DNA of 64,000 nucleotides. It comes from Flectonema sp. DT1601 (Eukaryota). How positions within the stretch are numbered: position 1 is the first letter of the stretch; every line of letters starts with the position of its first letter. The stretch is from the NCBI GenBank assembly GCA_964019425.1, contig OZ025780.1, forward strand, positions 1,488,001-1,552,000. The letters are read 5' to 3'. A model generated the notes under the pieces. It did not search any database and was not told where the DNA came from. It saw only the letters and a list, made by a program, of their open reading frames with translations. The position numbers and the translations under genes are program-made. Of this stretch, positions 29,776-63,222 are shown piece by piece.

Positions 29776-30064
29776 GAATTTCGATAAAGTGGGAAGTAAC
29801 GGACTGGGAGCTTTTGGCTCCTGCCCTATTCCCGATGTAAACTTTCTTTTTATTTTTATTTTTTTTTAACAGGCCCAAAGGGCGACAATGATGGTTGCTG
29901 ACCAAGGAATAATATTCAAATGAATTTTCGTTTCAAAGAAACGAACAGAATTAAGAGAGAGGCAGAGGAAAAAAAAAAAAAAAGAAAGAAAAGAAAAGAA
30001 AAGAAAAAAAAAAATGAAGAGGAAATAATCAAACATGAAAAAAAAAAAAAAAAAAAATATATAT

Positions 30065-30840: not shown

Positions 30841-30850
30841 ATATATATAT

Positions 30851-32574: not shown

Positions 32575-33941
32575 ATATATATAAATAAAAAACGTTGTAT
32601 GAAAAAGGAAAAAAAAGAAAAAAAAAAGACCAGAAAAGGAAAGAGAAAATGAAAAGGTATAATATTATTGTGGGGATATGAGGGATAGCAGGGAGATGCT
32701 CTTTTTTTTTTTTTTTTTTTTTTTCTTATTTATTATTTAAAAAAAGGAAACAATCAGTTTAGCGTCTCGATCAGGACGGAAAATAGAAATTAATCGACAT
32801 AGTTGATCGATAGAAAAAAAAAACAATGATAACATTGTTTATTCATTTTTTTTTTTTTTTTTTTTTTTTTAAATCTTTTTAATTATTTTAAAGAAAAAAC
32901 AATCAGTTTAGCGTCTTGACCAGGACGGAAAATAGTAAGTAATCGACATAGTCGATCGATAAAAAAAAAACAATGATAACATTGTTTATTCCTTTTTTTT
33001 TTTTTTTATTCTTTTTATTTATTTTTAAAGAAAAAACAATCAGTTTAGCGTCCTGACCAGGACGGAAAATAGAAAGTAATCGACATAGTCGATCGATAAA
33101 AAAAAACAATGATAACATTGTTTATTCTTTTTTTTTTTTTTTATTTTAATTCTTTTTATTTATTTTTTAAAAAGAAAAAAAATGGAAAATAGAAATTAGT
33201 CAACAAAGTCGAACGATAAAAAAAAACACAATGATAACATTGTTTATTCTTTTTTTTTTTATTTTTTTTATATTCTTTTTTATTAATCTTGAAAAAAAAA
33301 ACAATCAGTTTAGCGTCTTGACCAGGACGGAAAATAGAAAGTAGTCGACATAGTCGATCGATAAAAAAAACAATGATAACATTGTTTATTCTTTTTTTTT
33401 TTATTTTAAATTCTTTTTATTTATTTTTTAAAGAAAAAAAACGGAAAATAGAAATTAGTCGACAAAGTCGAACGATAAAAAAAAACAATGATAACATTGT
33501 TTATTCTTTTTTTTGTATTTTTTTATATTCTTTTTTATTAATTTTGAAAAAAAAAACAATCAGTTTAGCGTCTTGACCAGGACGGAAAATAGAAAGTAAT
33601 CGACATAGTCGATCGATAAAAAAAACAATGATAACATTGTTTATTCTTTTTTTTTTTTTTTTTTTAAATTCTTTTTATTAATTTTTTAAAGAAAAAAAAC
33701 GGAAAATAGAAATTAGTCAACAAAGTCGAACGATAAAAAAAAACAATGATAACATTGTTTATTCTTTTTTTTTATTTTTTTTTTTTAATATTTTTTTTTT
33801 TTTTTATTTTGAAAAAAAAACAATCAGTTTAGCGTCTTGACCAGGACGGAAAATAGAAAGTGATCGACATAGTCGATCGATAAAAAAACAATGATAACAT
33901 TGTTTATTCTTTTTTTTTATTTTAAATTCTTTTTATTATTT

Positions 33942-33981
33942 ATATCTGTACTTTATTGTTTTACATATCTGTACTTTATTG
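33942..33981 (+). other. Two tandem spliced-leader relics (ATATCTGTACTTTATTG x2) at the LINE 5' end
   Basis: The 17-mer occurs at 33942-33958 and 33965-33981. TCTGTACTTTATTG is the 3' end of euglenozoan SL exons (e.g. Leishmania, Diplonema). It lies 20 nt upstream of the ORF1 ATG. Confidence 0.8.
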
Positions 33982-34001: not shown

Positions 34002-36609
34002 ATGACATTGGATCCAGGCCTATTTGGCCTGATGCTGGAGAAGATGGTGGGCATGCTCGGTGAGATGCAGAAGGGTTTGAATGTAAAGGGGGTTACTAAA
34101 CGCAACGGGGGAGAGAAGTCATCGGTGGATTTATCGCCGATGAATGAAGAATGGACGAGGGTACGTGGTAAACGGCCCAAGGTAGTGAAGCGCAAGTCTG
34201 AGCCGGCTCAAGCGCTGAATTCGTTTAGTGGACTGAAGGAGGTCCGATGTGATGGGAAGGCAGCAACGAATTTCGAAAAGGTGGGAAGTAACGGACTGGG
34301 AGCTTTTGGCTCCTGCCCTATTCCCGATGTAAACTTTCTTTTTATTTTTTTTTTTTTTTTTAACAGGCCCAAAGGGCGACAATGATGGTTGCTGACCAAG
34401 GAATAATATTCAAATGAATTTTCGTTTCAAAGAAACGAACAGAATTAAGAGAGAGGTAGAGAAAAAAAAAAAAAAAAAAAAAAAAAAAAGAAAGAATAGA
34501 AAAAAAATATGAAGAGGAAATAATCAAACATGAAAAAAAAAAAAAAAAATAAAATATAAATAAAAAACGTTGTATGAAAAAGGAAAAAAAGAAAAAAAAA
34601 AGACCAGAAAAGGAAAGAGAAAATGAAAAGGTATAATATTATTGTGGGGATATGAGGATAGCAGGGAGATGCTCTTTTTTTTTTTTTTTTTTTCTTTTTT
34701 TTTTTATTTATTATTTAAAAAAAGAAACAATCAGTTTAGCGTCTCGATCAGGACGGAAAATAGAAATTAATCGACATAGTCGATCGATAGAAAAAAAACA
34801 ATGATAACATTGTTTATTCCTTTTTTTTTTTTTTTTTTTTTTATTCTTTTTATTTATTTTTAAAGAAAAAACAATCAGTTTAGCGTCCTGACCAGGACGG
34901 AAAATTGAAAGTGATCGACATAGTCGATCGATAGAAAAAAAACAATGATAACATTGTTTATTCCTTTTTTTTTTTTTTTTTTTTTTATTCTTTTTATTTA
35001 TTTTTAAAGAAAAAACAATCAGTTTAGCGTCCTGACCAGGACGGAAAATTGAAAGTGATCGACATAGTCGATCGATAGAAAAAAAACAATGATAACATTG
35101 TTTATTCTTTTTTTTTTTTTTTTTTTTTTTAAATCCTTTTAATTATTTTAAAGAAAAACAATCAATTTGCCGAATGTGCAAGAGAAGCGGTGGGACTGCC
35201 AACTCCGTGATGATGACTGGTCTGTTCCAGTAATTTCGATGTCAGGCGTGTTTAACACGTCGATTACGTGTGGTGTGTCACTGGGCACGGCCTCTGATGT
35301 AGATGCGATGATTAAACTCCGACCGGGAACAAACCTCTCGGTAATTTGCAAGAAAAACCCTGGGGGCGGTAAGAAGATACAGTTCCCGGCGGTGGTAAAC
35401 GACGGTGTACTGACACATCGGACCGGTTGGATTGTATCAACCGGGAAACCAGCTACCCTCTTCCGTGGAGACGCTCTGACTGCCGGTGACAATCGAGTGG
35501 TATTGTTCCACCACCACGCGCTCCACTCCAACGACAAGGTGCCTTCGCCTAGTGAGCTATGCAAGAAGGCCTCCGACTTCTACACGGCAGTTACGAACCT
35601 GCCCATCGAGCCGCACCTCTTGTGGCCTGCCAACAAGAAGGAATCAGACCCTCATGTTAAGTCTGTGAACATGAGGGTGCCAGCAGACGCTGTTGACGCC
35701 TTGAGAAGGGCAAGTGGGAGTGGTGGGTACTTCTTATCAGTACCGAATTTCGCAGACACAGCACCGTGCAGGACGTCAATCCAGCTCACGGTGGATTTTA
35801 AGTTAGCCTCATCGCTAGCCGGTGAACTCCGGTTACCTCTGAGGTTCTACCGCCACTCACGCAAACTGGGGGTTGTGTGTCTGAAGACCGACGAAGATTA
35901 CGTTCGATCGAAGCTGGGTGAGAATGCACTGCCGCCTCCACCTGAAGGCCTCAAGTTCTGTTTGAGGAGCCGAGCCATTGATGCGATGAGTTCGCTGGAA
36001 GTAGTGCAGGTCTGTGCTCACCAAGGGTGGGAGATTAACGTCGTTGCTCGGTACAGGAGCAGAAAGGAGCTTCCTAAGATGATTGTAGTGGCCAAGGAGA
36101 AACCCAAGAGTAACTTCATCATTCTTCGTGATGACATGATCACAATCAAAGAGGTGGGCCTCGGCAAGCAGAATCCCGATAAGATGGACCTGGACGAGTT
36201 TCCTCACCTCTGTCAACCTAACGCTGCGCCATCTGTTGGAATTGATTTATCGCCACCGCCTGTTTCTCAGCAAAATCAGCAATATCTGCAAACGCTTCAA
36301 TCGAACAAACAGCAGCTGCCCATACCGCCTTCGCAGTACAACTGTCAACAATCCGACATTTCTAAATTGGTATCGCAGGTTACTGAACTAACGGCTGCTG
36401 TGAAGAGTCTACGGCAGGACCTTGCTGAAGAGAGGGATGCGAATAGATGTCTCCGAAAGGAGATTGAGTCCCTAAATAATGAAAAAGGATCGGGATCTCA
36501 GAGGCTGACCGTCTCAAGTAGGCAACGAGCTAACTCTGTTGCTGCTACTAAGTCTGAAATGGCTGACCGTCTTGATCGGAATGAGAAACGGGACTACTCG
36601 CGGAATTAG
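34002..36609 (+). CDS. LINE ORF1 (570 aa after removing insert 34274-35168)
   Basis: The join ACG AAT TT|G CCG AAT gives ...GKAATNLPNVQEKRW...; C-terminal Q-rich and coiled-coil region; AATTT is duplicated at the junctions. Confidence 0.8.
34268..35163 (-). mobile_element. Element A copy inserted in LINE ORF1
   Basis: Fixed end GAATTTCGAAAAGGTGGG; truncated after ~3.5 satellite units; AATTT on both sides. Confidence 0.9.
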
Positions 36610-37655
36610 CAACCACTTCCAATTGACTGTTTATTGGGAAAGACTCCGTCCTTGGAGTACTATTATTCTGTGAGTGGACTTCTGGAACTCTATCGTAGTG
36701 GTTTTCCGAGACACCCTGGTCCGATGTCTGATATATCGCCGCTGAGAATACTTAGTTGGAATGCGCTGTCGATGGTAAAACACCATGAATCTCTGGTACG
36801 GCTCGTTCAATCGGCTAATCCTGACATCCTCCATATTCAAGAAACTTGGCTCACTGATCTGGTTCTTGATGAACAGATTCAACTTCAGGGATACACCTGC
36901 TTCCGTAGGGACAGAATCAGATTAAATTTTAATGGCAAGGCAAAACGCGGTGGTGGACTGGCGACTTTCTGCAGGGACTCCCTTGTGGTCAGGAGATTAT
37001 CGGATCCAACTGAGCGTAATTCACCGTTTGAGGTGTTAGTTGTCGAGGTAATGACAGACATCGGTCCGATTACGTCTTCTAATGTGTATATTCCGCAGAA
37101 TTTCTTGGTGCCGACCTCTGTTGTCTTCGGTGAAGTAGTATGTGGAGATTTCAATGCTCACCATCGGTCGTGGTCGAGGGTGGTTCCAACAAGTAGTTCG
37201 TCGCGAGGTCTGTCAGTTCTTGATTGGATTAACGGAAATGGACTGCAGATTTGCGATGTTCCGCTGGATACAAGACCTTGTTCAGAGACTTCACCTGATT
37301 TGTTTCTTGTCGACAGCAATATTGAGGTGTTGAATGTACACCAGTACAGTGCGTCTGATAGTGGGTCCGACCACACGCCAATAGTGGTTGACATCTCGGT
37401 ATATCCGGGCTGCTCACAAATTACCACTCCCGCTCACCGCCGCTGGTTCTACAACAAGTTCGAGGATGAGCACTGGGTCTCATTTCGCGTGCTAACTGAA
37501 GCGCGAGCTCATCGTTTGGAGGGGATGTCTAATGTGAACAAGCTTGGATGTGAATTTATTAGTCTAATTGAGGAGGTGGCTATTGAAACGCTTCCAAACA
37601 AATGGTTCAAATCTGATACGAAGCGGAGGAAGAAATTACCTAAGCTGAGACCTAA
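36610..37655 (+). CDS. LINE ORF2 part 1: apurinic-like (APE) endonuclease
   Basis: LRILSWNA, PDILHIQETWL, RRDR...GGGLA, NVYIP, GDFNAHH, PDLF and SDHTPI motifs; first Met at 36724. Confidence 0.95.
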
Positions 37656-37830
37656 ATTTCGAAAAGGTGGGAAGTAACGGACTGGGAGCTTTTGGCTCCT
37701 GCCCTATTCCCGATGTAAACTTTCTTTTTATTTTTTTTTTTTTTTTAACAGGCCCAAAGGGCGACAATGATGGTTGCTGACCAAGGAATAATATTCAAAT
37801 GAATTTTCGTTTCAAAGAAACGAACAGAAT

Positions 37831-40224
37831 TAAGATGCACTCTGAACTTTGATTTTTTGATCTGAGTGTGAGGGAATGACCTGTTAGTGCATTGGGCATA
37901 GGCTGGGCTGCAGTTTAGATGTCTTAGGTGTTAATAGGGGGTTCCTCTTAGCATTTTTCTTTGTTCCCACCTTATGATTTTCTTGAAGAAAAAAAATAGA
38001 AGTCATAATGGTGCTTCCCTCTGGAAGGGTTGTAAGCCATGGTGTCCAACTAAATTAAAGGACAAGTCTGGGATAATCCCTGCCAGAGGGGCGAGTATTC
38101 TACCATGGTTGAAATACTCTGGCAACTGATCTTCAATTTTATGTTGTTTGTTAGCTGCTGGTGTATCTTGATTATGTGTTGATACTTGCATTTTTTTATT
38201 TGTAATCTTCTATTACAATTCTCTTTCTGTTCTGGTCTGTTACTTCATTTGTCTTGTTTAACTTCAGTTATATGCATTTTACTTTTTATTGTTTCCCATC
38301 TACTTTTTATTTTCTATTAGTTCTGGTCAGAAACTCGTGGGCAGCAAGAAGGAAAGCAGTTAAGTACTTCTGGGTGTTTGGCATCACCCCCCATAGTGAG
38401 CAAGTACAACAGGTAGCATTGGTAGTCTGTTGATCCTGAGTGATCCCAGCTACAGTTTTGTTTTTCTTTCTTTTTTTTAGAAGAAGATCAGGACATCCAA
38501 GCACTGCTGGATAGTTGCTGAATGCAGGGCCTGCCTGTGGCATTATAATAACAGGCTAAGTCATTTGTAGTTCATAGTTTACCTTTGATTTTATAACTTC
38601 ACACAGGGTACTATGAACGATGAGAGATCCAGTGGGATCACTCAGGGTCTAGTAGAGACCACCAATGTTGTGCGTTGATAGGCAAGGTGACCAACCTTGA
38701 CATTCTTTCTTTTCTCTCCTGTTGTGACAAACACAAAATACACACACAGCTTACAGTGTGTTCTTTGTGTATGTTTTCTTCAGGTGTGAGTAGTTTTTTT
38801 GTTCTTGCTCTTCAGGGAGGGCCTTAGCCAAAAGCTAACAGTCCAAATCTCACCTGGAAATTCAACTCAGTCCTTGTCAGTTTTGGCATCAAACTTGTAA
38901 TGGTTTAATCATTACAGGTTATTTACTGAAATATTTGTTCTAAAAGTTGCTAAGTATTTCTCACTTAGAATTTTTTTATTTTTTTATTTTCAGCTTAATT
39001 AGCTACAAATTGTTTCTACTAAGTGTTTCTCACTTAGATTTTTTTTTTGCTTTTCAGCTCCTTAAAAGCTGCTAAGTGTTTCTGCTAAGTGTTTCTCACT
39101 TAGAATTTTATTTTTATGTTCGTTTTCTATCCCTTCTCCTATCCCTTTTGTTCAAAATAAGCGGGAGGAAATTCTCTCATTCACGCTAAGATGCACTCTG
39201 AACTTTGATTTTTTGATCTGAGTGTGAGGGAATGACCTGTTAGTGCATTGGGCATAGGCTGGGCTGCAGTTTAGATGTCTTAGGTGTTAATAGGGGGTTC
39301 CTCTTAGCATTTTTCTTTGTTCCCACCTTATGATTTTCTTGAAGAAAAAAAATAGAAGTCATAATGGTGCTTCCCTCTGGAAGGGTTGTAAGCCATGGTG
39401 TCCAACTAAATTAAAGGACAAGTCTGGGATAATCCCTGCCAGAGGGGCGAGTATTCTACCATGGTTGAAATACTCTGGCAACTGATCTTCAATTTTATGT
39501 TGTTTGTTAGCTGCTGGTGTATCTTGATTATGTGTTGATACTTGCATTTTTTTATTTGTAATCTTCTATTACAATTCTCTTTCTGTTCTGGTCTGTTACT
39601 TCATTTGTCTTGTTTAACTTCAGTTATATGCATTTTACTTTTTATTGTTTCCCATCTACTTTTTATTTTCTATTAGTTCTGGTCAGAAACTCGTGGGCAG
39701 CAAGAAGGAAAGCAGTTAAGTACTTCTGGGTGTTTGGCATCACCCCCCATAGTGAGCAAGTACAACAGGTAGCATTGGTAGTCTGTTGATCCTGAGTGAT
39801 CCCAGCTACAGTTTTGTTTTTCTTTCTTTTTTTTAGAAGAAGATCAGGACATCCAAGCACTGCTGGATAGTTGCTGAATGCAGGGCCTGCCTGTGGCATT
39901 ATAATAACAGGCTAAGTCATTTGTAGTTCATAGTTTACCTTTGATTTTATAACTTCACACAGGGTACTATGAACGATGAGAGATCCAGTGGGATCACTCA
40001 GGGTCTAGTAGAGACCACCAATGTTGTGCGTTGATAGGCAAGGTGACCAACCTTGACATTCTTTCTTTTCTCTCCTGTTGTGACAAACACAAAATACACA
40101 CACAGCTTACAGTGTGTTCTTTGTGTATGTTTTCTTCAGGTGTGAGTAGTTTTTTTGTTCTTGCTCTTCAGGGAGGGCCTTAGCCAAAAGCTAACAGTCC
40201 AAATCTCACCTGGAAATTCAACTC
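37831..40224 (+). mobile_element. Element B copy 2: ~1.77 head-to-tail units of 1356 bp
   Basis: Identical ORF-track entries 1356 bp apart (38003/39359, 38307/39663); ends at GGAAATTCAACTC; TAAGA microhomology at the other junction; 2-bp target loss. Confidence 0.92.
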
Positions 40225-40439
40225 GAGGTAGAGAAAAAAAAAAAAAAAAAAAAAAAAAGAAAGAATAGAAAAAAAATATGAAGAGGAAATAATCAAACAT
40301 GAAAAAAAAAAAAAAAAATAAAATATAAATAAAAAACGTTGTATGAAAAAGGAAAAAAAGAAAAAAAAAAGACCAGAAAAGGAAAGAGAAAATGAAAAGG
40401 TATAATATTATTGTGGGGATATGAGGATAGCAGGGAGAT

Positions 40440-40475
<36 letters not shown>

Positions 40476-41017
40476 TTATTATTTAAAAAAAGGAAACAAT
40501 CAGTTTAGCGTCTCGATCAGGACGGAAAATAGAAATTAATCGACATAGTCGATCGATAGAAAAAAAACAATGATAACATTGTTTATTCCTTTTTTTTTTT
40601 TTTTTTTTTTATTCTTTTTAATTATTTTTAAAGAAAAAACAATCAGTTTAGCGTCCTGACCAGGACGGAAAATTGAAAGTGATCGACATAGTCGATCGAT
40701 AGAAAAAAAACAATGATAACATTGTTTATTCTTTTTTTTTTTTTTTTTTTTTTTTTAAATCCTTTTAATTATTTTAAAGAAAAAACAATCAGTTTAGCGT
40801 CTTGACCAGGGCGGAAAATAGAAAGTGATCGACATAGTCGATCGATAAAAAAAAAACAATGATAACATTGTTTATTCCTTTTTTTTTTTTTTTTTTTTTT
40901 TATTCTTTTTATTTATTTTTAAAGAAAAAACAATCAGTTTAGCGTCCTGACCAGGACGGAAAATTGAAAGTGATCGACATAGTCGATCGATAAAAAAACA
41001 ATGATAACATTGTTTAT

Positions 41018-41052
<35 letters not shown>

Positions 41053-41656
41053 CTTTTAATTATTTTTTAAAGAAAAAACAATCAGTTTAGCGTCTTGACC
41101 AGGACGGAAAATAGAAAGTGATCGACATAGTCGATCGATAAAAAACAATGATAACATTGTTTATTCTTTTTTTTTTTTTTTTTTTAATCCTTTTTATTAT
41201 TTTAAAGAAAAAACAATCAGTTTAGCGTCTTGACCAGGACGGAAAATAGAAAGTGATCGACATAGTCGATCGATAAAAAAACAATGATAACATTGTTTAT
41301 TCTTTTTTTTTTTTTTTTTTTAAATTCTTTTTATTTATTTTTAAAGAAAAAAAAAACGGAAAATAAAAATTAGTCGACAAAGTCGAACGATAAAAAAAAA
41401 ACAATGATAACATTGTTTATTCTTTTTTTTTTTGTTTTTTTTTTTATTATTCTTTTTTATTAATTTTGAAAAAAAAACAATCAGTTTAGCGTCTTGACTA
41501 GGACGGAAAATAGAAAGTAATCGACATAGTCGATCGATAAAAAAAAACAATGATAACATTGTTTACTCTTTTTTTTTTTTTTTTTTAAATTCTTTTTATT
41601 TTAAAAAGAAAAAAAACGGAAAATAGAAATTAGTCGACAAAGTCGAACGATAAAAA

Positions 41657-43660
41657 TGAATTTAAAATAAAAAAAAAGAATAAACAATGTTATCATTGTT
41701 TTTTTTATCGATCGACTATGTCGATCACTTTCTATTTTCCGTCCTAGTCAATACGCTAAACTGATTGTTTTTTTTTTTCAAAATTAATAAAAAAGAATAT
41801 AAAAAAATACAAAAAAAAAGAATAAACAATGTTATCATTGTTTTTTTTTATCGTTCGACTTTGTCGACTAATTTCTATTTTCCGTTTTTTTTCTTTTAAA
41901 AATAAATAAAAAGAATTTAAAATAAAAAAAAAGAATAAACAATGTTATCATTGTTTTTTTATCGATCGACTATGTCGATCACTTTCTATTTTCCGTCCTG
42001 GTCAAGACGCTAAACTGATTGTTTTTTTTTTTTCAAAATAAAAAAAAAATATTAAAAAAAAAAAAATAAAAAAAAAGAATAAACAATGTTATCATTGTTT
42101 TTCTTTATCGTTCGACTTTGTTGACTAATTTCTATTTTCCGTTTTTTTTTCTTTAAAAAATAAATAAAAAGAATTTAAAAAAAAAAAAAAAAAAAAGAAT
42201 AAACAATGTTATCATTGTTTTTTTTATCGATCGACTATGTCGATTACTTTCTATTTTCCGTCCTGGTCAAGACGCTAAACTGATTGTTTTTTTTTCAAAA
42301 TTAATAAAAAAGAATATAAAAAAATACAAAAAAAAGAATAAACAATGTTATCATTGTTTTCTTTATCGATCGACTATGTCGATTACTTTCTATTTTCCGT
42401 CCTGGTCAAGACGCTAAACTGATTGTTTTTTTTTCAAAATTAATAAAAAAGAATATAAAAAAATACAAAAAAAAGAATAAACAATGTTATCATTGTTTTT
42501 TTTATCGATCGACTATGTCGATTACTTTCTATTTTCCGTCCTGGTCAAGACGCTAAACTGATTGTTTTTTTTTTCAAAATAAAAAAAAAATATTAAAAAA
42601 AAAAAAATAAAAAAAAAGAATAAACAATGTTATCATTGTTTTTTTTTATCGTTCGACTTTGTTGACTAATTTCTATTTTCCGTTTTTTTTCTTTAAAAAA
42701 TAAATAAAAAGAATTTAAAAAAAAAAAAAAAAAAAAGAATAAACAATGTTATCATTGTTTTTTTTATCGATCGACTATGTCGATTACTTTCTATTTTCCG
42801 TCCTGGTCAAGACGCTAAACTGATTGTTTTTTTTTTCAAAATTAATAAAAAAAAAAGAATATAAAAAAATACAAAAAAAAGAATAAACAATGTTATCATT
42901 GTTTTTTTTTATCGTTCGACTTTGTCGACTAATTTCTATTTTCCGTTTTTTTTCTTTAAAAAATTAATAAAAAGAATTTAAAATAAAAAAAAAAAAGAAT
43001 AAACAATGTTATCATTGTTTTTTTTATCGATCGACTATGTCGATTACTTTCTATTTTCCGTCCTGGTCAAGACGCTAAACTGATTGTTTTTTTTTTCAAA
43101 ATTAATAAAAAAGAATATAAAAAAAATAAAAAAAAAAAAGAATAAACAATGTTATCATTGTTTTTTTTTATCGTTCGACTTTGTTGACTAATTTCTATTT
43201 TCCATTTTTTTTCTTTTTAAAAATAAATAAAAAGAATTAAAATAAAAAAAAAAAAAAAAGAATAAACAATGTTATCATTGTTTTTTTTATCGATCGACTA
43301 TGTCGATTACTTTCTATTTTCCGTCCTGGTCAGGACGCTAAACTGATTGTTTTTTCTTTAAAAATAAATAAAAAGAATAAAAAAAAAAAAAAAAGGAATA
43401 AACAATGTTATCATTGTTTTTTTTTTATCGATCGACTATGTCGATTACTTACTATTTTCCGTCCTGGTCAAGACGCTAAACTGATTGTTTTTTCTTTAAA
43501 ATAATTAAAAAGATTTAAAAAAAAAAAAAAAAAAAAAAAATGAATAAACAATGTTATCATTGTTTTTTTTTCTATCGATCAACTATGTCGATTAATTTCT
43601 ATTTTCCGTCCTGATCGAGACGCTAAACTGATTGTTTCCTTTTTTTAAATAATAAATAAG

Positions 43661-43691
<31 letters not shown>

Positions 43692-44091
43692 ATCTCCCTG
43701 CTATCCCTCATATCCCCACAATAATATTATACCTTTTCATTTTCTCTTTCCTTTTCTGGTCTTTTTTTTTTTCTTTTTTTCCTTTTTCATACAACGTTTT
43801 TTATTTATATATATATATATTTTTTTTTTTTTTTTCATGTTTGATTATTTCCTCTTCATTTTTTTTTTTCTTTTCTTTTCTTTCTTTTTTTTTTTTTTTC
43901 CTCTGCCTCTCTCTTAATTCTGTTCGTTTCTTTGAAACGAAAATTCATTTGAATATTATTCCTTGGTCAGCAACCATCATTGTCGCCCTTTGGGCCTGTT
44001 AAAAAAAAATAAAATAAAAAGAAAGTTTACATCGGGAATAGGGCAGGAGCCAAAAGCTCCCAGTCCGTTACTTCCCACTTTATCGAAATTC
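41657..44091 (+). mobile_element. Element A copy inserted in inverted orientation within another A satellite
   Basis: Satellite orientation flips at ~41657; fixed end ...TATCGAAATTC at 44091. Confidence 0.88.
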
Positions 44092-44518
44092 AAAACAATG
44101 ATAACATTGTTTATTCTTTTTTTTTTATTTTTTTTTTTTATATTCTTTTTTATTAATTTTGAAAAAAAAACAATCAGTTTAGCGTCTTGACCAGGACGGA
44201 AAATAGAAAGTGATCGACATAGTCGATCGATAAAAAAAAACAATGATAACATTGTTTATTCTTTTTTTTTTTTTTTAAATCTTTTTATTTATTTTTTAAA
44301 AAGAAAAAAAAAAAACGGAAAATAGAAATTAGTCAACAACGTCGAACGATAAAAAAAAAACAATGATAACATTGTTTATTCTTTTTTTTTTATTTTTTTT
44401 TGTATTCTTTTTTATTAATTTTGAAAAAAAACAATCAGTTTTGCGTCTTGACCAGGACGGAAAATAGAAAGTGATCGACATAGTCGATCGATAAAAAAAC
44501 AATGATAACATTGTTTAT

Positions 44519-44554
<36 letters not shown>

Positions 44555-44609
44555 CTTTTTTTTTTTTTAAAGAAAAAACAATCAGTTTAGCGTCTTGACC
44601 AGGACGGAA

Positions 44610-45114
44610 TCTTATTGCGAAAATTGGTTCTTCAAAAGGAGCGGCCTGGGCCTTCGACAAGCTGCGGGAACTCAGGGGCGGTCGGTCCAATTCAAAGGAA
44701 GTTCCGGTTGCTGCTGATGATTTACTCGACCATTTCTTTGGTGATTCAAAATCCTCACCGTTATTAGTTCCTGATTCGAAGCCTGCTGATTATGATGACT
44801 CAAGCTGTGGTTCTTTTTCGATTCATGAGTTATACACGGTACTGAAGTCATTGACTCCCTCCCACGGGTCTGGTTTAGATTCTGTTTCTAATAATATGCT
44901 GCTTAACTTGGGTCCCCGTATGCTCCTACTATTGCTTAGACTCGCCTCGCTATCTTTCAGGAGGGGTATCTTTCCCTCTTGCATGAAAAAGGCCAAGGTG
45001 ATTATAATTCCGAAGGGAGGGGATCGTGACCCGCTTCTTCCGTCTTCTTACAGACCAATCTCTTTGACGTCAATTGTTTCGAAGTGCTTGGAGTCGCTTG
45101 TGGGTAATCGAATT
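44610..45114 (+). CDS. LINE ORF2 part 2: linker and RT domains 0-2
   Basis: FSIHELYTVLKSL, GSGLDSV, KKAKVIIIPKGG and SYRPISLTSIVSKCLE motifs; open from 44608. Confidence 0.92.
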
Positions 45115-45300
45115 TCGATAAAGTGGGAAGTAACGGACTGGGAGCTTTTGGCTCCTGCCCTATTCCCGATGTAAACTTTCTTTTTATTTTTATTTTTTTT
45201 TAACAGGCCCAAAGGGCGACAATGATGGTTGCTGACCAAGGAATAATATTCAAATGAATTTTCGTTTCAAAGAAACGAACAGAATTAAGAGAGAGGCAGA

Positions 45301-45334
<34 letters not shown>

Positions 45335-45510
45335 GAGAAAAAAAATGAAGAGGAAATAATCAAACATGAAAAAAAAAAAAAAAAAAAAATATATAAATAA
45401 AAAACGTTGTATGAAAAAGGAAAAAAAGAAAAGAAAAAAAGACCAGAAAAGGAAAGAGAAAATGAAAAGGTATAATATTATTGTGGGGATATGAGGGATA
45501 GCAGGGAGAT

Positions 45511-45543
<33 letters not shown>

Positions 45544-46594
45544 CTTATTTATTATTTAAAAAAAGGAAACAATCAGTTTAGCGTCTCGATCAGGACGGAA
45601 AATAGAAATTAATCGACATAGTTGATCGATAGAAAAAAAAACAATGATAACATTGTTTATTCATTTTTTTTTTTTTTTTTTTTTTTAAATCTTTTTAATT
45701 ATTTTAAAGAAAAAACAATCAGTTTAGCGTCTTGACCAGGACGGAAAATAATAAGTAATCGACATAGTCGATCGATAAAAAAAAAACAATGATAACATTG
45801 TTTATTCCTTTTTTTTTTTTTTTTTTATTCTTTTTATTTATTTTTAAAGAAAAACAATCAGTTTAGCGTCCTGACCAGGACGGAAAATAGAAAGTAATCG
45901 ACATAGTCGATCGATAAAAAAAACAATGATAACATTGTTTATTCTTTTTTTTTTTTTTTATTTTAATTCTTTTTTTTTATTTTTAAAAAGAAAAAAAAGG
46001 GAAATAGAAATTAGTCAACAAAGTCGAACGATAAAAAAAAACAATGATAACATTGTTTATTCTTTTTTTTTTTATTTTTTTTATATTCTTTTTTATTAAT
46101 TTTGAAAAAAAAACAATCAGTTTAGCGTCTTGACCAGGACGGAAAATAGAAAGTAATCGACATAGTCGATCGATAAAAAAAACAATGATAACATTGTTTA
46201 TTCTTTTTTTTTTTTATTTTAAATTCTTTTTATTTATTTTTTGAAGAAAAAAAACGGAAAATAGAAATTAGTCGACAAAGTCGAACGATAAAAAAAAACA
46301 ATGATAACATTGTTTATTCTTTTTTTTGTATTTTTTTATATTCTTTTTTATTAATTTTGAAAAAAAAACAATCAGTTTAGCGTCTTGACCAGGACGGAAA
46401 ATAGAAAGTAATCGACATAGTCGATCGATAAAAAAAACAATGATAACATTGTTTATTCTTTTTTTTGTATTTTTTTATATTCTTTTTTATTAATTTTGAA
46501 AAAAAAACAATCAGTTTAGCGTCTTGACCAGGACGGAAAATAGAAAGTGATCGACATAGTCGATCGGTAAAAAAACAATGATAACATTGTATAT

Positions 46595-46627
<33 letters not shown>

Positions 46628-49600
46628 CTTTTTATTTATTTTTTAAAGAAAAAAAAAACGGAAAATAGAAATTAGTCAACAAAGTCGAACGATAAAAAAA
46701 ACAATGATAACATTGTTTATTCTTTTTTTTTATTTTTTTTTATATTCTTTTTTAATAATTTTGAAAAAAAAAACAATCAGTTTAGCGTCTTGACCAGGAC
46801 GGAAAATAGAAAGTGATCGACATAGTCGATCGATAAAAAAACAATGATAACATTGTTTATTCTTTTTTTTTTTTTTTTTTTTTTTTTAAATTCTTTTTAT
46901 TTATTTTTTAAAGAAAAAAAAACGGAAAATAGAAATTAGTCAACAAAGTCGAACGATAAAAAAAACAATGATAACATTGTTTATTCTTTTTTTTTTATTT
47001 TTTTTTTTTAATATTTTTTTTTATTTTGAAAAAAAAAACAATCAGTTTAGCGTCTTGACCAGGACGGAAAATAGAAAGTAATCGACATAGTCGATCGATA
47101 AAAAAAAACAATGATAACATTGTTTATTCTTTTTTTTTATTTTAAATTCTTTTTATTTATTTTTTAAAGAAAAGAAACGGAAAATAGAAATTAGTCGACA
47201 AAGTCGAACGATAAAAAAAAAAACAATGATAACATTGTTTATTCTTTTTTTTTTGTATTTTTTTTAATATTCTTTTTTATTAATTTTGAAAAAATAAACA
47301 ATCAGTTTAGCGTCTTGACCAGGACGGAAAATAGAAAGTGATCGACATAGTCGATCGATAAAAAAAAACAATGATAACATTGTTTATTCTTTTTTTTATT
47401 TTAAATTCTTTTTATTAATTTTTTAAAGAAAAAAAAAAAACGGAAAATAGAAATTAGTCGACAAAGTCGAACGATAAAAAAAACAATGATAACATTGTTT
47501 ATTCTTTTTTTTTGTATATTTTTATGTTCTTTTTTATTAATTTTGAAAAAAAAAACAATCAGTTTAGCGTCTTGACCAGGACGGAAAATAGAAAGTGATC
47601 GACATAGTCGATCGATAAAAAAAACAATGATAACATTGTTTATTCTTTTTTTTTATTTTAAATTCTTTTTATTTATTCTTTAAAGAAAAGAAACGGAAAA
47701 TAGAAATTAGTCGACAAAGTCGAACGATAAAAAAAAACAATGATAACATTGTTTTTCCTTTTTTTTTTTTTTTTTTATATTCTTTTTTATTAATTTTGAA
47801 AAAAAAAAAAACAATCAGTTTAGCGTCTTGACCAGGACGGAAAATAGAAAGTGATCGACATAGTCGATCGATAAAAAAACAATGATAACATTGTTTATTC
47901 TTTTTTTTTATTTTAAATTCTTTTTATTTATTCCTTAAAGAAAAGAAACGGAAAATAGAAATTAGTCGACAAAGTCTAACGATAAAAAAAAAACAATGAT
48001 AACATTGTTTATTCTTTTTTTTTTTTTTTTTTTTATATTCTTTTTTATTAATTTTGAAAAAAAAAACAATCAGTTTAGCGTCTTGACCAGGACGGAAAAT
48101 AGAAAGTGATCGACATAGTCGATCGATAAAAAAACAATGATAACATTGTTTATTCTTTTTTTTTATTTTAAATTCTTTTTATTTATTTTTTAAAGAAAAA
48201 AAACGGAAAATAGAAATTAGTCAACAAAGTCGAACGATAAAAAAAACAATGATAACATTGTTTATTCTTTTTTTTTTTTTTTTTTTTTTTATATTCTTTT
48301 TTATTAATTTTGAAAAAAAAAACAATCAGTTTAGCGTCTTGACCAGGACGGAAAATAGAAAGTGATCGACATAGACGATCGATAAAAAAACAATGATAAC
48401 ATTGTTTATTCTTTTTTTTTATTTTAAATTCTTTTTATTTATTTTTTAAAGAAAAAAAACGGAAAATAGAAATTAGTCAACAAAGTCGAACAATAAAAAA
48501 AAACAATGATAACATTGTTTATTCTTTTTTTTTTTTTTTTTTTTTTTTTTATATTCTTTTTTATTAATTTTGAAAAAAAAAACAATCAGTTTAGCGTCTT
48601 GACCAGGACGGAAAATAGAAAGTAATCGACATAGTCGATCGATAAAAAAAACAATGATAACATTGTTTATTCTTTTTTTTTATTTTAAATTCTTTTTATT
48701 TATTATTTAAAGAAAAGAAACGGAAAATAGAAATTAGTCGACAAAGTCGAACGATAAAAAAAAACAATGATAACATTGTTTATTCTTTTTTTTTTTTTTT
48801 TTATATTCTTTTTATTAATTTTTTAAAAAAAAAAAAAAAAACAATCAGTTTAGCGTCTTGACCAGGACGGAAAACTGGAAGTAATCGACATAGTCGATCG
48901 ATAAAAAAAACAATGATAACATTGTTTCATCTTTTATATTTTTTAATTTTTTTTTATATTTGAAGAAAAGAAAGAAGAAAAAAAAAAAAAAAAAAAACAA
49001 GCGGAATTGATCATAATGGGTGGCAGGGGTTGATATAACTTCATTTGAAAATTCTTCTTTTTTAATTTCTTTTTTTTTGAAAATTTTTTTTTATTTAACA
49101 GGAGTTAAGATCACTTACATGAGTTAACACAACACAGATACGAGAGTAGCAAACTGAGGTAACACTACCAATTCAACAAAAAATAATCAGGATCGGACAC
49201 AAGGAGGAGAGTTCATTCTACCTCTCACTGTCCTTGCTGGTATCTTAAGTGTCTTGGTATCTCTTGTGTGTCGGTATCTCGGAAGTGCTGGTATCTCGTG
49301 TGTGCGTTGGTATCTCTTGCGTGTTGGTATCTCTTGCACATAATAAAAAAAAAATATTGAGTTAACATGATCAGTTTTATTTAACATCAGAGACAGACCG
49401 GAACTATTTGAAAATAAAATGTAGATGGGAAACAGTGAAAATTAAAATGAATGATAAAATTAAATGAGATTTATGACATAACAGACCAGATAGAGAGTAA
49501 TAAAGGGAAAAGGAAAACGGGAAGGGTTCATTCACTTAGTTAAAGTTAAGACCGATTAGTCAGTTTAAGGTCTTGACTAGGACCAACAAAAAAAAAATAA

Positions 49601-50076
49601 ATAAATAAATAACGGTCAAGCTGAGCTGATCTTGTTTTTATTAAAATAAGGGGAGCGGGAGGGATGGAAGGAATAAAGGAAAAAAAAGAAAAGGTCGATC
49701 AATTGGATCTGGTCGTCGAGAAGAAGAAGACAATTATTTTAAAGGTCGATCGGCATAGCCGATCGTTGAGAAAAATAACCAGATATAAATACAATCAGTT
49801 TAAATAAAAAAAAAAAAAAAATAAATAAATAAAAAAAGTTTAACGATCAAGCTGAGCTGATCTTGTTTTTATTAAATTAAGGGGAGCGGGAGGGATGGAA
49901 GGAATAAAGGAAAAAAAAAGAAAAGGTCGATCAATTGGATCTGATCGTCGAGAAGAAGAAAACAATTATTTTTAAAAAAAATGATCGGTATAGCCGATCG
50001 TTGAGAAAAGAACAGATATAAATACAATCGGTTTTGGTGATCGACGAGTGGAGCGATCACTTGACAAGAAGGATGT
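45110..50076 (-). mobile_element. Long element A copy (~5 kb) in the RT domain: head, ~3.4-kb satellite, unique distal region
   Basis: Fixed end at 45110; satellite ~45568-48930; distal region with a GGTATCTC array (49239-49333), a ~190-bp duplication (49610-49800 / 49840-50030) and the leader motif 50031-50066. Confidence 0.88.
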
Positions 50077-51117
50077 GAACATTTGTTGGAGGGGAAGTTG
50101 GACCCTAGGCAGTCTGGTTTTACGCCGGGCAGAAATGTAGAAGAGAACATCTCGCTATTGGTGGATGCGGCTTCCGGTGTGCAGAAACTCTATGATGGTT
50201 ATGGAGCGATCATCCTCTTTGATATCTCTGGGGCATTCGATAACGTGGATCATCAAATACTCGTTGATAGATTGGTAGCTGTCCTGCCGGTTCCGTATGT
50301 TAAATGGCTTGCGAACTATCTTTCGGATAGAAATGTGAGTCTGTCTCTGGGATTAGATAATGGATCCAGATCCTGTACGAAGGGGGTCCCTCAAGGATCT
50401 GTGCTTGGTCCTCTCTTATTTCGGATCTTTGTCGACTCCCTGCCAGGTCTAATAAGTGGTGCTGATCTCAGTGTTCTGTTTGCTGATGATCTTGCCGTGT
50501 TTCTGCAACATGAGAAGATAGATGGGATCGAAGCGAAGGGCCTGTCCGTCATCTCTCAGATAGAAGGTTGGATGGTTTCCTCTAAGATGGAGGTAAACAT
50601 GAAGAAAACAGAGTACGTTGCCTTTGGTAAGCGCATCTCTGGCTCCGATGTCGAATGGAGTAGGGCACCTCGCTTTTACTTCCCATCGTCTGTTGAAGAG
50701 TTACACATGCCTACAGGCTCTGCCGGTGCTCTCACTGAGAAGCTTTCTCCATCAATAGGGGCAGTTCTGGATCTCGCTGATGCTTTGCTGCCACTGGAGA
50801 TTGATGGTTACCCGGTGACGAGACGTTCTGACTTTGTCCGACTGGCCTGTGCTCGTAAGAGCAAGGAGTTCAGGCTGAAAGCAGCGATCCCACTGAAACG
50901 TGTCAGGAGCGCGAAATACCTAGGAGTTATCATTGATGACTCGCTATGCTTCGACGAACAGGTGGATAAGATTGTGAAAACAATTCGAGCTGGTTGCGGT
51001 TTACTCAAAATGTTCTCTGCCTATGAGGTCAAAACTGATACCCTTCGTCAGCTTGTAGATGGTGCAGTGTTATCTCGAGCGTTCTTTGGACTAAAGGCTT
51101 TTTCTCCCTTTTTGTCT
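50077..51117 (+). CDS. LINE ORF2 part 3: reverse transcriptase core
   Basis: QSGF, FDISGAFDNVDH, GVPQGSVLGPLLF, FADD and KYLGV motifs. Confidence 0.96.
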
Positions 51118-51907
51118 CTTTCCTTTTCTGGTCTTTTTTTTTTCTTTTTTTCCTTTTTCATACAACGTTTTTTATTTACTGTAAAGGGAAATATTCTCGC
51201 GGGGAAATATTCTTGCGGGGAAATATTCTTGCGGGGAAATATTCTCGCGGATTTGGAGATTTTTTTTCAAACTCGCGGGTTTTTCCCCACAAGAATATTT
51301 CCCTGCCACAGAGGATTTTTGTGAAAGCCAGCCAGTTGATCAAGAATCTAAGAAATCTTTGTGCTTCCATCAAGTGTCAGGTAGAACAAAGCATTATTCT
51401 CCAAGCAAACACAATAAAAAACTACCATACTGCACAATAAAAATAATTTTTACTGAAACTTTCCTTCATAGCACACATATTTTCTTCACAAAAAAGAACA
51501 AAAAAATGGCTAGAAAAAAAGTATGCTTGCAGGGAAATATTCCCGCGGGGAAATATTCTCGCGGATTCAGAAAAAATAATAAAAACTCGTGGGTTTTTCC
51601 CCACAAGAATATTTCCCTTTACAGTATATTTTTTTTTTTTTTTTTTTTTTCATGTTTGATTATTTCCTCTTCATATTTTTTTTCTATTCTTTCTTTTTTT
51701 TTTTTTTTTTTTTTTCTCTACCTCTCTCTTAATTCTGTTCGTTTCTTTGAAACGAAAATTCATTTGAATATTATTCCTTGGTCAGCAACCATCATTGTCG
51801 CCCTTTGGGCCTGTTAAAAAAAAAAAAAAATAAAAAGAAAGTTTACATCGGGAATAGGGCAGGAGCCAAAAGCTCCCAGTCCGTTACTTCCCACCTTTTC
51901 GAAATTC
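51115..51907 (+). mobile_element. Short element A copy between RT and RNase H, carrying a MITE
   Basis: Fixed end ...TTTTCGAAATTC at 51907; TCT at both junctions. Confidence 0.9.
51179..51624. mobile_element. MITE (446 bp), TA TSD
   Basis: TIRs CTGTAAAGGGAAATATTCT / AGAATATTTCCCTTTACAG, flanked by TA; internal GCGGGGAAATATTCT repeats; termini resemble the 25200 MITE. Confidence 0.92.
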
Positions 51908-51908
51908 T

Positions 51909-53480
51909 GATGTTCAGATCAAGCGGATCGAAGCGTGCTTGCGTCATCTACGGATAAGACTCACTGGTTGCTCGTTCTCGACGAAGGATGTGGTGCTCAC
52001 AGTTGAGTCGCGAATTCCACCGCTGCAACAAACGATATCTAGGCTCCTTGCCCTAGTTCATGAAGATCTGCTAAGGCGACAACCTGAATGTCCTTCATGG
52101 AGGCTGTTTAACGGTGGTGAGAAGAAGAGACCATGGCAGACTAGAGTTGAAGCCTGTTCCTCGGAATTTTCTCTGTCAGAGCTTAGGTCCCAGAAAGTTC
52201 TGCCACATCAGTATCCTCCGTGGTCGAAGCATCCTCCTTTGGTTGTAAACACGTCCTGCGGTTATGACAAGACTGACACACCTGAGGAGAAGTATGCTGT
52301 GGCGATGACGACCCTCAATGAACTGCCCCCGTGTGTTGCTGAAGTCTACACTGATGCCTCGGTCTTCCATGACGAGGAGCGGGGATTATTATGTGGGGGG
52401 GCTGCTGTTCTGCTAGTTGCTGGCAAGGTCATTGAGAAGCTCTCCAAGTTCCAACCGTCCCTCACGATTTACAATGCAGAACAACTAGCACTATTGTCAG
52501 CCCTTGAACTACTAGAGGAGAATCTTCATGTTGTTTCGCATGGCGTGATTCATATTTTCAGTGATTGTCAGTCGGCGCTTGCCTCCCTGCATAGGGGGCC
52601 ATCCAGGCAGTCATCATCAACAAATCGTGAGATTTTTGAACGCTCAGTGCTTCTTGATAGGCCGTTGATTTTCCAGCATGTCCCATCTCATTGTGGCATT
52701 GCAGGGAATGAACTGGCTGATACACTGGCAAAGAAGGCAGCCTTGCAATCAGTTGACCCTGAACTAACTCCGTATGATTTCAGGATGGCTCAATGTTGTA
52801 TTAAGAAACAAGCAAATTGGAAGGCTATGGGTACTGTGGACTCTTCGCATTCATACAGCAAAGCGACTCTAGGATCTGGCCCTCAACGTTTCCTTCCCTG
52901 TCTCACTAGGGGCCAGGAGGTAGAATTGTCTCGTCTGCGAACCTCTCACCACAGGCTTGTAAAGCTGCCGAGGGTCACTGCGGGCTTTAAATGTTGTCTG
53001 TTCTGTGGCTTTCAGGATACCTCAACTGAGCATCTGCTGCTTGAATGCGTTGAGACCAGGGAATTAGTAAAGCAAACCATGAGATTTCCGACACCTGATG
53101 ATGAGCTATCTCTGGATATGTTCTTTCGAACCGAATGGCAGCCTTTCACGTTGTTATTGATCAGCAAGCTTGATAATCATCTTAAAGAGTTATCTGACAA
53201 TCCGTTGTTGTTGAAGTTTCCGCTTCAGGGTATTTTTGTGAGGAAGAAACTAATCACACACATCGAAAGGAAGACAAGTTTCTCGCTACTGGGTTCTGAT
53301 GTGAAGGAATATGTTATGGAACTTATTGATAACGCTTATAAAGCTACCGATTTAAATGTTGTTATTGACGACCTTTCTATGGTTAATGTGCTGGTCAATC
53401 CTAGCTGGTCGGAATCCAAGCTTTCTAAGTTCCTCTCTCACCTAAGTCGCCTCCTGCGAAGTAATCCCCGAGGTAGATAA
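51909..53480 (+). CDS. LINE ORF2 part 4: connection, RNase H, CCHC zinc knuckle, C-terminal extension
   Basis: VYTDAS, YNAEQLAL, IFSDCQSAL, HVPSHCGIAGNELADTLAK; LSRLRTSH; CLFCG....STEHLLLEC. Confidence 0.95.
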   Translation, partial: DVQIKRIEACLRHLRIRLTGCSFSTKDVVLTVESRIPPLQQTISRLLALVHEDLLRRQPECPSWRLFNGGEKKRPWQTRVEACSSEFSLSELRSQKVLPHQYPPWSKHPPLVVNTSCGYDKTDTPEEKYAVAMTTLNELPPCVAEVYTDASVFHDEERGLLCGGAAVLLVAGKVIEKLSKFQPSLTIYNAEQLALLSALELLEENLHVVSHGVIHIFSDCQSALASLHRGPSRQSSSTNREIFERSVLLDRPLIFQHVPSHCGIAGNELADTLAKKAALQSVDPELTPYDFRMAQCCIKKQANWKAMGTVDSSHSYSKATLGSGPQRFLPCLTRGQEVELSRLRTSHHRLVKLPRVTAGFKCCLFCGFQDTSTEHLLLECVETRELVKQTMRFPTPDDELSLDMFFRTEWQPFTLLLISKLDNHLKELSDNPLLLKFPLQGIFVRKKLITHIERKTSFSLLGSDVKEYVMELIDNAYKATDLNVVIDDLSMVNVLVNPSWSESKLSKFLSHLSRLLRSNPRGR

Positions 53481-62953: not shown

Positions 62954-63222
62954 TGAATAAACAATGTTATCATTGTTTTTTTTTCTATCGATCAACTATG
63001 TCGATTAATTTCTATTTTCCGTCCTGATCGAGACGCTAAACTGATTGTTTCCTTTTTTTAAATAATAAATAAGAAAAAAAAAAAAAAAAAAAAAAGAGCA
63101 TCTCCCTGCTATCCCCCATATCCCCACAATAATATTATACCTTTTCATTTTCTCTTTCCTTTTCTGGTCTTTTTTTTTTCTTTTTTTTCCTTTTTCATAC
63201 AACGTTTTTTATTTATATATAT
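62084..63222 (+). mobile_element. Element A copy (inverted relative to its host), interrupted in its head by transposon X'
   Basis: Satellite orientation flips at 62084; head sequence 63050-63222. Confidence 0.85.

Follow-up and report, generated by a model that had tools for sequence, protein, structure and literature searches.

How the ORF2 protein is translated from a bicistronic LINE RNA is an open question, for which reinitiation is the only studied route in the literature surveyed, as far as the available texts go. A locus of Flectonema sp. DT1601, a marine and probably diplonemid protist, bears on this question. In the 64,000-nucleotide stretch analysed here (contig OZ025780.1, positions 1,488,001 to 1,552,000 of the forward strand), which we call the window, ORF1 (frame 35152-36609) and the APE endonuclease of ORF2 (frame 36610-37677) of a LINE lie in one and the same frame, and their junction reads CGG AAT TAG CAA CCA CTT. 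The sequence-only reading of this DNA had pointed out the TAG, its CARYYA context, the common frame and the 38 open codons up to the Met at 36724, all of which can be read directly from the sequence, and had proposed that the element makes an ORF1-ORF2 fusion by programmed readthrough.

The element is an APE-RT-RNase H LINE with two ORFs. Its membership among the LINEs is given by the order of APE and non-LTR reverse transcriptase in ORF2 (Pfam PF03372, PF14529, and PF00078), which also encodes an RNase H (PF00075, E 2e-10) and, in its last piece, a CxxC...H...C finger; the best PDB sequence match of ORF2 is human L1 ORF2p (E 1e-14). The copy in the window is dead, being cut into five coding pieces by four nested insertions (Table 1). 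Introns were ruled out as the source of these insertions, which are missing from intact copies and whose ends are not GT-AG. No clear 3' tail or target-site duplication was seen, and both ends of the element adjoin other insertions. A continuous ORF2 is absent from the window, where the frame closes at 37677, while intact copies encode an ORF1 of 570-573 aa, the stop, 38 codons, and an ORF2 of 1,349 aa (1,958-1,961 in all). The fusion of ~1960 aa in the sequence-only reading, in which neither the dead state of this copy nor the 2A-like motif described below had been noticed, is thus right in length for intact copies only, because the window copy is broken by the insertions. This is a young family, and one that evolves under selection, since the window ORF2 differs from an intact copy at 7 of 1,347 residues and 9 of the 11 ORF1 substitutions in sequencing run X1 are synonymous.

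Table 1. Features of the LINE copy and its junction (positions in the window)
Feature	Position	Strand	Basis or remark
SL-like relic 1, matching the last 14 nt of a euglenozoan spliced-leader exon	33945..33958	+	SL exon table, PMC3795323
SL-like relic 2	33968..33981	+	20 nt upstream of ORF1 ATG
ORF1 N-terminal piece, 90 codons	34002..34271	+	tblastn with intact ORF1 P0002; junction comparison
Nested insertion 1, copy-specific, short AATTT repeat at flanks	34272..35166 (ends approximate)		Missing from intact ORF1 proteins
ORF1 main piece; predicted tandem RRM-like domains and C-terminal coiled coil	35167..36606	+	Weak fold matches
Single in-frame TAG closing ORF1	36607..36609	+	Same end in other copies
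CAA CCA, CAR-YYA type I readthrough context	36610..36615	+	Definition in the available text of PMC3159437
38-codon AUG-free spacer, conserved coding leader	36610..36723	+	Homologous to sister family B ORF2 N-terminus
In-frame TTG, candidate near-cognate start	36634..36636	+	Aligned with Met2 of sister ORF2 P0026
Degenerate 2A-like peptide ending ...SGFPRHPGP, adjoining the APE domain	36664..36723	+	Position as in L1Tc/Ingi (available text of PMC3708506)
ORF2 piece 1 from first Met: APE endonuclease and linker (P0012 residues 1-310)	36724..37653	+	PF03372/PF14529; 1 difference from P0012
Nested composite insertion 2	37654..44610 (ends approximate)		
ORF2 piece 2 (P0012 residues 312-477)	44611..45108	+	0 differences
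Nested composite insertion 3	45109..50073 (ends approximate)		
ORF2 piece 3: reverse transcriptase (P0012 residues 479-826)	50074..51117	+	PF00078; 1 difference
Nested insertion 4	51118..51908 (ends approximate)		
ORF2 piece 4: RNase H, CCHC finger, C-terminus, TAA stop (P0012 residues 827-1349)	51909..53480	+	PF00075; 5 differences

For ORF1, no Pfam family passes. Its structure model, at a mean pLDDT of 62.7, shows alpha/beta domains together with a helix of 50 residues, and its fold matches are tandem-RRM proteins, with weak scores (E about 6e-4, TM under 0.3); ESM Atlas matches, all at or below 0.80, serve as leads only. ORF1 is conserved among its relatives. At the 5' end of the element, the number of SL-like 14-mers (two) is reached in 0 of 100 shuffles. 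Both lie upstream of ORF1, with none near the ORF1-ORF2 junction, and a search of Rfam gave no SL or other family above the gathering score. Reads of run X1 at this end amount to one 48-nt piece of low identity. The suggestion of an SL-capped monocistronic mRNA is favoured by the SL-like relics as regards the cap, whereas the RNA itself would be bicistronic.

Is the TAG a property of the family or of this copy? The copies were compared as predicted proteins only. In the ORF1 cluster, the C-terminus is reached in seven of eight members, and all seven end in ...RDYSRN; P0004, probably the window's own copy, is left out of the end count, and with P0029 and P0030, which likewise stop at this residue, there are eight other distinct proteins in all. 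In addition, P0018 was called from another copy in a shifted frame; its sequence ...GISNHF fits TAG alone among the three stops, with YAA-YCA next. On this protein evidence the ORF1 stop is common to the whole family. As to the codon and its context, whose conservation the sequence-only reading had proposed to check, one further copy implies TAG-YAA-YCA, and TAG plus CARYYA is known from one young family alone, where conservation is to be expected anyway. From the base composition of the element, CARYYA is expected at about 1 in 612, and it is observed at 4 of its 1,946 codon-aligned hexamers. The joint chance of a common frame (1/3), CARYYA, and an open spacer is ~1e-4, a post hoc figure uncorrected for how many LINEs the scan covered. 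Four contigs from run X1 cover 36139-37650 with a hole at 36570-36645, and none bridges the stop. No fused ORF1-ORF2 protein was found in protein searches, one of which was insensitive, having missed P0026. Downstream RNA structure is not required at type I readthrough sites. Here, folding places a 7-bp hairpin 7 nt 3' of the stop, but none of the segments folded beats its shuffles (z +0.28 to -1.05). In the literature searched, we found no report of CARYYA leakiness measured in a euglenozoan.

The spacer that follows the stop has no ATG in any of the frames, and by chance 15.6% of 20,000 shuffled spacers stay open. An ungapped alignment pairs it with the leader of P0026, an ORF2 of sister family B (10 of 31 residues identical), although the ORF2s of the window family (A) and family B are only 41% identical. 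The local score is 53, against 19.4 +/- 4.0 for shuffled spacers, and 0 of 20,000 shuffles score as high; without the last nine residues, the score is reached by 103 of 20,000 shuffles in local alignment and by 0 of 50,000 in anchored alignment. Because the spacer is conserved at the protein level, ribosomes likely translate it, even though it has no AUG. In family B, the gene caller chose a leader Met as the start in all four full-length members, and at least one of these leader Mets is a true Met that aligns with the TTA/TTG of the window element; for this reason, initiation within the leader may be ancestral, or is at least possible. The ORF2 starts called in families C and D lie after the first APE strand (P0192) and after the QETW motif (P0191), and starts as late as these occur in 10 of 141 unrelated APE matches, a weak hint that these sister families have no leader AUG.

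The leader ends in a 2A-like motif, whose PGP is kept, together with the upstream leader, between families A and B; the P0026 leader has NPGP. As in class A 2A peptides, the motif immediately precedes APE and has a Leu-rich tract upstream, but S-G-F-P-R-H-P-G-P departs from the class A cores G-D-x-E-x-N-P-G-P and G-x-E-x-N-P-G-P. Class B peptides have an invariant upstream Trp, an EEGIE-like core, and P-[NH]-PGP, and active ones with HPGP occur (PMC12338488); the spacer has the HPGP and neither Trp nor acidic core. According to the available text of PMC3708506, substitutions of the 2A Glu kill activity and a change of N to H lowers it. Because the key Glu (Pro here) and Asn (His here) are missing, skipping at the motif is probably weak or absent.

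These observations are best explained, with a probability that we put at about 0.6, by occasional type I readthrough of the UAG, so that ORF2p would be made as a minor predicted ORF1-ORF2 fusion of ~1,960 aa. The element RNA would be capped by SL trans-splicing, and most ribosomes would halt at the UAG and release the predicted RNA-binding ORF1p of 570-573 aa. A few per cent would decode the UAG with an amino acid and go on into ORF2, which would yield a high ratio of ORF1p to ORF2p. The 2A-like motif would be a weak or inactive relic, and most of the readthrough product is therefore predicted to remain fused. Programmed readthrough is favoured by the common stop and the conserved spacer, while the UUG at the position of the sister start Met and the AUG before the APE catalytic residues weigh on the other side. 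As AUG 36724 precedes these residues, the family could produce ORF2p without readthrough.

The strongest competitor, though unlikely, is termination-reinitiation or a leaky near-cognate start, either at UUG 36634 with the 2A-like leader kept or at AUG 36724, the first AUG after the stop in any frame; the frame and CARYYA would then be incidental. Reinitiation is described for SART1 and proposed for mammalian L1 in the available texts (PMC5972666, PMC3708506), would account for the conserved leader as well, and fits the alignment of TTA/TTG at 36631/36634 with Met1/Met2 of P0026. On the other hand, it leaves an exact CARYYA (~1/600) behind an in-frame UAG unexplained, an overlapping stop-start is absent, and families C and D seem to have no upstream AUG, the last being a weak objection.

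Readthrough could also be followed by efficient StopGo at the 2A-like motif, which would release ORF2p, with Pro as its first residue, from an ORF1p extended to about 608-611 aa. The position directly before APE, as in L1Tc and Ingi, whose 2As are active (in the available text of PMC3708506), the PGP and leader shared by families A and B, and the HPGP of active class B peptides (PMC12338488) agree with this, and ORF2p would be separated from ORF1p; the Pro at the conserved Glu, the His at the Asn, and the missing class B Trp make it rather improbable, a judgement that covers efficient skipping, the readthrough step being common to the best explanation. A bolder version is similarly doubtful: a diplonemid LINE clade with two serial recodings on one SL-capped RNA, in which tobamovirus-type UAG readthrough would control how many ribosomes enter ORF2, and ORF2p would then be set free by a non-canonical 2A (HPGP, no Glu), with no initiation codon involved. 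If true, this would be both a novel route to ORF2p and a novel class of active 2A sequence.

Still less probable is an internal SL trans-splicing acceptor, at the AG of the TAG or another spacer AG, that creates a separate capped ORF2 mRNA read from AUG 36724. Euglenozoans do cut polycistronic RNA by SL trans-splicing (PMC8061765), the stretch 36560-36723 contains seven AG dinucleotides, and the AUG-less spacer would make a clean 5' UTR. However, its protein-level conservation would be unexplained, and the SL-like relics lie upstream of ORF1 and not at the junction. Under cis preference, which is established for L1, ORF2p translated from such a truncated RNA should use this RNA, and not the full element, as its template. 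Finally, it is highly improbable that the element has a single ORF in which the TAG arose as a nonsense mutation of this copy, the case that the sequence-only reading had named as refuting its proposal, or that the host decodes it as an amino acid: mutations could have piled up in a dead copy and stop reassignment is known in a kinetoplastid genus (PMC8061765), but the eight other ORF1 proteins with the same end refute the mutation at the protein level, relatives of ORF1 stop close to this point, protein searches returned no fused form, and reassignment is rejected because the roughly 1,960 codons include one TAG but 65 codons for Gln (P under 0.01, even if the TAG share were 10%).

Scans of viral contigs for sister-family DNA gave nothing related, and a degenerate 2A-plus-APE pattern matched at least 117 stretches in metagenome contigs; among the matches listed, none of the 122 loci checked (117 metagenome and five viral) belongs to this clade, and only L027 is LINE-like. 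Genome contigs gave two distant LINEs at an uninformative 25-26% identity. In a quick RT tree of 56 rows, which has no named Ingi, I, or Nimb references, the careful search being unfinished, families A-D group together (SH-aLRT 100) and are joined by a Flectonema element (99).

What does the family add to known systems? It offers a short textbook signal, UAG-CAA-CCA, together with an independent sign of translation after the stop, so that a handful of point mutations in a single reporter would tell readthrough, reinitiation, and StopGo apart. The combination of an ORF1 and a 2A-like leader in a euglenozoan element is a state between two-ORF LINEs and the single-ORF, 2A-bearing Ingi elements.

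The LTR element SIRE1 uses CARYYA. MuLV, Tca2, SIRE1, and VdLTRE5 resemble the window element in having structural and enzymatic ORFs in frame with one stop between them, and differ in their LTR architecture; in the available texts, MuLV has a pseudoknot, and Tca2 and VdLTRE5 have no CARYYA (PMC2194720, PMC3441728). The Tca2 case, as far as described, also indicates that an in-frame stop junction need not be read through by local context (PMC2194720). The tobamovirus replicase, in the available text of PMC3159437, shares UAG-CAR-YYA, an abundant upstream product, a downstream polymerase, and no significant 3' structure, whereas its -1/-2 context is A-rich and the 5' codon here is AAU. Unlike this virus, our element, for which readthrough is predicted, is a nuclear retrotransposon. 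Mammalian L1 and silkworm SART1 likewise have a bicistronic LINE RNA with low ORF2 output, but termination-reinitiation is proposed for L1 over a 63-nt spacer and described for SART1 at a UAAUG overlap, neither of which is readthrough (available texts of PMC5972666, PMC3708506). L1Tc and Ingi (Odon et al. 2013, PMC3708506, as far as available) share a 2A-like peptide directly before APE, an APE-RT-RNase H ORF2, and a euglenozoan host. The C-terminal Cys/His finger of ORF2, like its RNase H, also agrees with the Ingi clade. Ingi elements lack an ORF1, so that the window family, with its ORF1 of 570-573 aa, falls outside their single-ORF definition; it carries a degenerate motif, with Glu missing and His in place of Asn, and an AUG-free leader attached to the ORF1 stop. 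The closest precedent is Group 3 of the non-LTR elements of Paramecium tetraurelia, for which readthrough was proposed from consensus sequences (Guerin et al. 2017, PMC5405496), and "unusual for non-LTR elements", as the sequence-only reading put it, was overstated. According to its available text, these are also APE-RT LINEs with ORF1 and ORF2 in one frame and one in-frame stop; they belong to a ciliate clade, RNase H is not among their annotated proteins, and neither CARYYA nor a 2A-like leader is mentioned there. The window family is thus a variant on a readthrough already proposed for Paramecium LINEs, and what is new is the spacer as a conserved coding leader, homologous to the 2A-like N-terminus of the family B ORF2.

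At positions 36601-36618 the sequence reads CGG AAT TAG CAA CCA CTT, with the TAG at 36607-36609. A single reading frame spans 35152-37700: 485 codons are open, one stop follows, and the next 355 codons, which include the APE endonuclease, are open again. From the TAG to the ATG at 36724 there are 38 open codons, and this 114-nt spacer (36610-36723) contains no ATG in any frame. The sequence-only reading had described the in-frame TAG, its CARYYA context and the open codons before ATG 36724, all of which are seen in the window sequence, and its fusion length of ~1960 aa agrees with a predicted readthrough product of 1,958-1,961 aa. A frame is shared by chance in 1/3 of cases, CARYYA is expected about once in 612 positions from the base composition (within the element it is found at 4 of 1,946 codon-aligned positions), and 15.6% of spacer shuffles stay open; the joint chance of frame, context and open spacer is ~1e-4, a post hoc figure uncorrected for the many LINEs scanned.

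We consider UAG readthrough the best reading of this junction throughout family A, the LINE family of the window copy; it is putative but likely, with a probability of roughly 0.6. Most ribosomes would stop at UAG and release ORF1p, and a small share would read through the CAA-CCA context to make an ORF1-ORF2 fusion. This single mechanism would account for the shared frame, the CARYYA context and a spacer that is open, free of AUG and conserved. RNA structure prediction 3' of the stop gave nothing better than shuffles; in the available text of PMC3159437, the definition of type I readthrough sites involves only the six bases. Tca2, whose in-frame junction failed to direct readthrough in yeast reporters (available text of PMC2194720), is by analogy a caution against reading an in-frame junction as readthrough.

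A search with the read-through sequence found P0026, the ORF2 of sister family B, with a match starting within the spacer. P0026 is 41% identical to family A ORF2 over its own length, and begins with a 31-residue leader ending ...LLRSGVHPNPGP, followed directly by APE. The last 31 spacer residues align with this leader without gaps (10/31 identical), with a local score of 53 against 19.4 +/- 4.0 for shuffles, none of 20,000 scoring as high. When the last four residues were removed, the score was reached by 4/20,000 shuffles, and when the last nine were removed, by 103/20,000 (local) or 0/50,000 (anchored). Because a neutral spacer would not stay alike over such divergence, the spacer is likely to have been translated in the family A lineage, at least until recently. 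P0020, also of family A, keeps the final 17 residues of the spacer, and the sole spacer change in sequencing run X1 is synonymous.

The leader is a degenerate 2A-like peptide in which Pro replaces the key Glu and His replaces the Asn, and its motif departs from the 2A core. According to the available text of PMC3708506, Glu substitutions abolish 2A recoding and N to H lowers it, so that little or no skipping is predicted here; efficient StopGo after readthrough, a branch of the best reading, is doubtful. LINEs with 2A-like leaders before APE are also seen in Flectonema neradi (P0035/P0188/P0189) and Diplonema ambulator (P0034), and one diplonemid leader, GNVEVNPGP, is near canonical.

Ribosomes might instead reinitiate at UUG 36634 or AUG 36724, which we regard as the foremost rival, though an unlikely one; a separate ORF2 mRNA from an internal SL acceptor seems improbable. 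The family A leader has no AUG upstream of the 2A-like motif. In family B one or more leader residues are true Met; Met1/Met2 of that leader stand opposite the window's TTA/TTG at 36631/36634, which lends near-cognate reinitiation some plausibility. In two further families, C and D (P0191 and P0192; 41-42% identical to family A), the called ORF2 starts lie inside the APE domain, past its first strand or past the QETW motif. Clearly truncated starts make up 10/141 of unrelated APE hits, a control biased toward complete domains and with P0192 just below its threshold; as each family also has one representative, we take this as a weak hint that AUG-less leaders may be common in the clade. In a quick RT tree families A-D form one group (SH-aLRT 100), in which A lies outside B, C, and D (89). 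ORF1 relatives share roughly this end position, among them P0027, named as a Flectonema transcript's second ORF. The sister ORF1 proteins P0027, P0031, and P0032 all end in Gln or Lys, whose codons could give the A-rich 5' context of viral readthrough sites, a post hoc observation at the protein level.

At 33945-33981 lie two exact tandem copies of the 3'-terminal 14 nt of a euglenozoan spliced leader (sequences from the available text of PMC3795323), 20 and 43 nt upstream of the ORF1 ATG; 0/100 shuffles reached two copies. The GT of an SL gene is absent after both copies, which resemble remnants of a trans-spliced RNA that had been copied back into DNA, and we infer that family A RNA has passed through SL trans-splicing. 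Another insertion adjoins these candidate relics, which may lie inside or outside the element's true 5' end.

Seven of the eight members of the ORF1 cluster reach the C-terminus, and all seven end ...RDYSRN; the eighth has a frameshift upstream. P0004, identical to the window piece and starting just past the first insertion, is treated as the window copy itself and left out of the count. The six remaining members are recorded on 9 contigs, and the fragments P0029 and P0030 have the same final residue, although all of the proteins could derive from a single assembly, and a shared protein end does not specify the stop codon. P0018, a +1-frame call from another copy, reads ...RGISNHF, where the Ser is given by TAG alone among the three stops and the next residues imply YAA-YCA. 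On these sequences the TAG stop is a family-wide feature of family A, and the check on other copies for a copy-specific nonsense mutation thus came out in favor of a shared stop. A nonsense mutation or code change is very hard to sustain with TAG common to the family, and TAG as a sense codon was ruled out by 1 TAG against 65 Gln codons. No fused ORF1-ORF2 protein was found in the best 150 of 1,333 hits of the read-through query against 1.84 billion representatives, or in two further word-based protein searches.

A single LINE lies in the window, split into five coding pieces where a repeat-rich mobile element inserted four times; Pfam detects APE, RT, and RNase H domains in it. Intact family A ORF1 proteins have 567-573 aa, and intact ORF2 proteins have 1,349 aa and begin with the Met that corresponds to ATG 36724. 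The ORF2 pieces differ from the intact P0012 at 7/1,347 residues, which indicates that family A is young and that the window copy was killed by insertion, not decay. The predicted ORF1 model (mean pLDDT 62.7) has a weak likeness to tandem-RRM proteins and a long helix at the end. The closest named relatives are in the Flectonema neradi and Diplonema ambulator transcriptomes, which together with the spliced-leader copies makes a diplonemid the probable host.

Coding pieces of the LINE and positions of the foldback-like element family
Feature	Positions	Strand
LINE coding piece 1	34002-34271	
LINE coding piece 2	35167-37653	
LINE coding piece 3	44611-45108	
LINE coding piece 4	50074-51117	
LINE coding piece 5	51909-53480	
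Foldback-like element family	27710, 29777, 34269, 37655, 45111	+
Foldback-like element family	44090, 51906, 56248, 61544	-

Members of the foldback-like family share the terminus AATTTCGA...GTGGGAAG and contain extended arrays of A/T-rich repeats of ~140 bp; the family struck the LINE copy four times and occupies much of 27-64 kb. Within insertion 2, a ~1.3-kb segment is duplicated in tandem (37834-40225), and part of it also lies at 29390-29776; it could be captured sequence, or the duplication could be an artefact of the assembly. A separate element at ~30060-32580 has terminal inverted CAGTCATTCC inside (TA)n. Its Cys-rich ORF of 229 codons (31265-31954) matches zf-Tnp_2 weakly (E 0.058), and a related end recurs near 63220. 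A large multi-exon host gene at 5454-10271 (-) encodes numerous IQ-like repeats and contains a (TGTGT)n tract that resembles an intron.

The idea of LINE ORF1/ORF2 readthrough is not new, since consensus sequences of Paramecium Group 3 LINEs had already led to that proposal (available text of PMC5405496). The literature covered, with most subscription journals and Repbase outside its scope, yielded no UAG-CARYYA LINE junction, no readthrough stop before a 2A-like leader, and no diplonemid LINE clade A-D; the available text of the D. papillatum genome paper names LINE-like ORFs and gives no detail. Two pseudoscorpion proteins have 2A-like peptides between their ORF1p and ORF2p domains (available text of a 2026 preprint, 10.64898/2026.06.17.732966), and L1Tc and Ingi have one at the same position as the family A leader (PMC3708506, available text). 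The ORF2 of family A has features like Ingi, and the family is not classed as Ingi because ORF1 is present. With a junction that would function like a type I readthrough cassette, family A offers a good test case for LINE readthrough.
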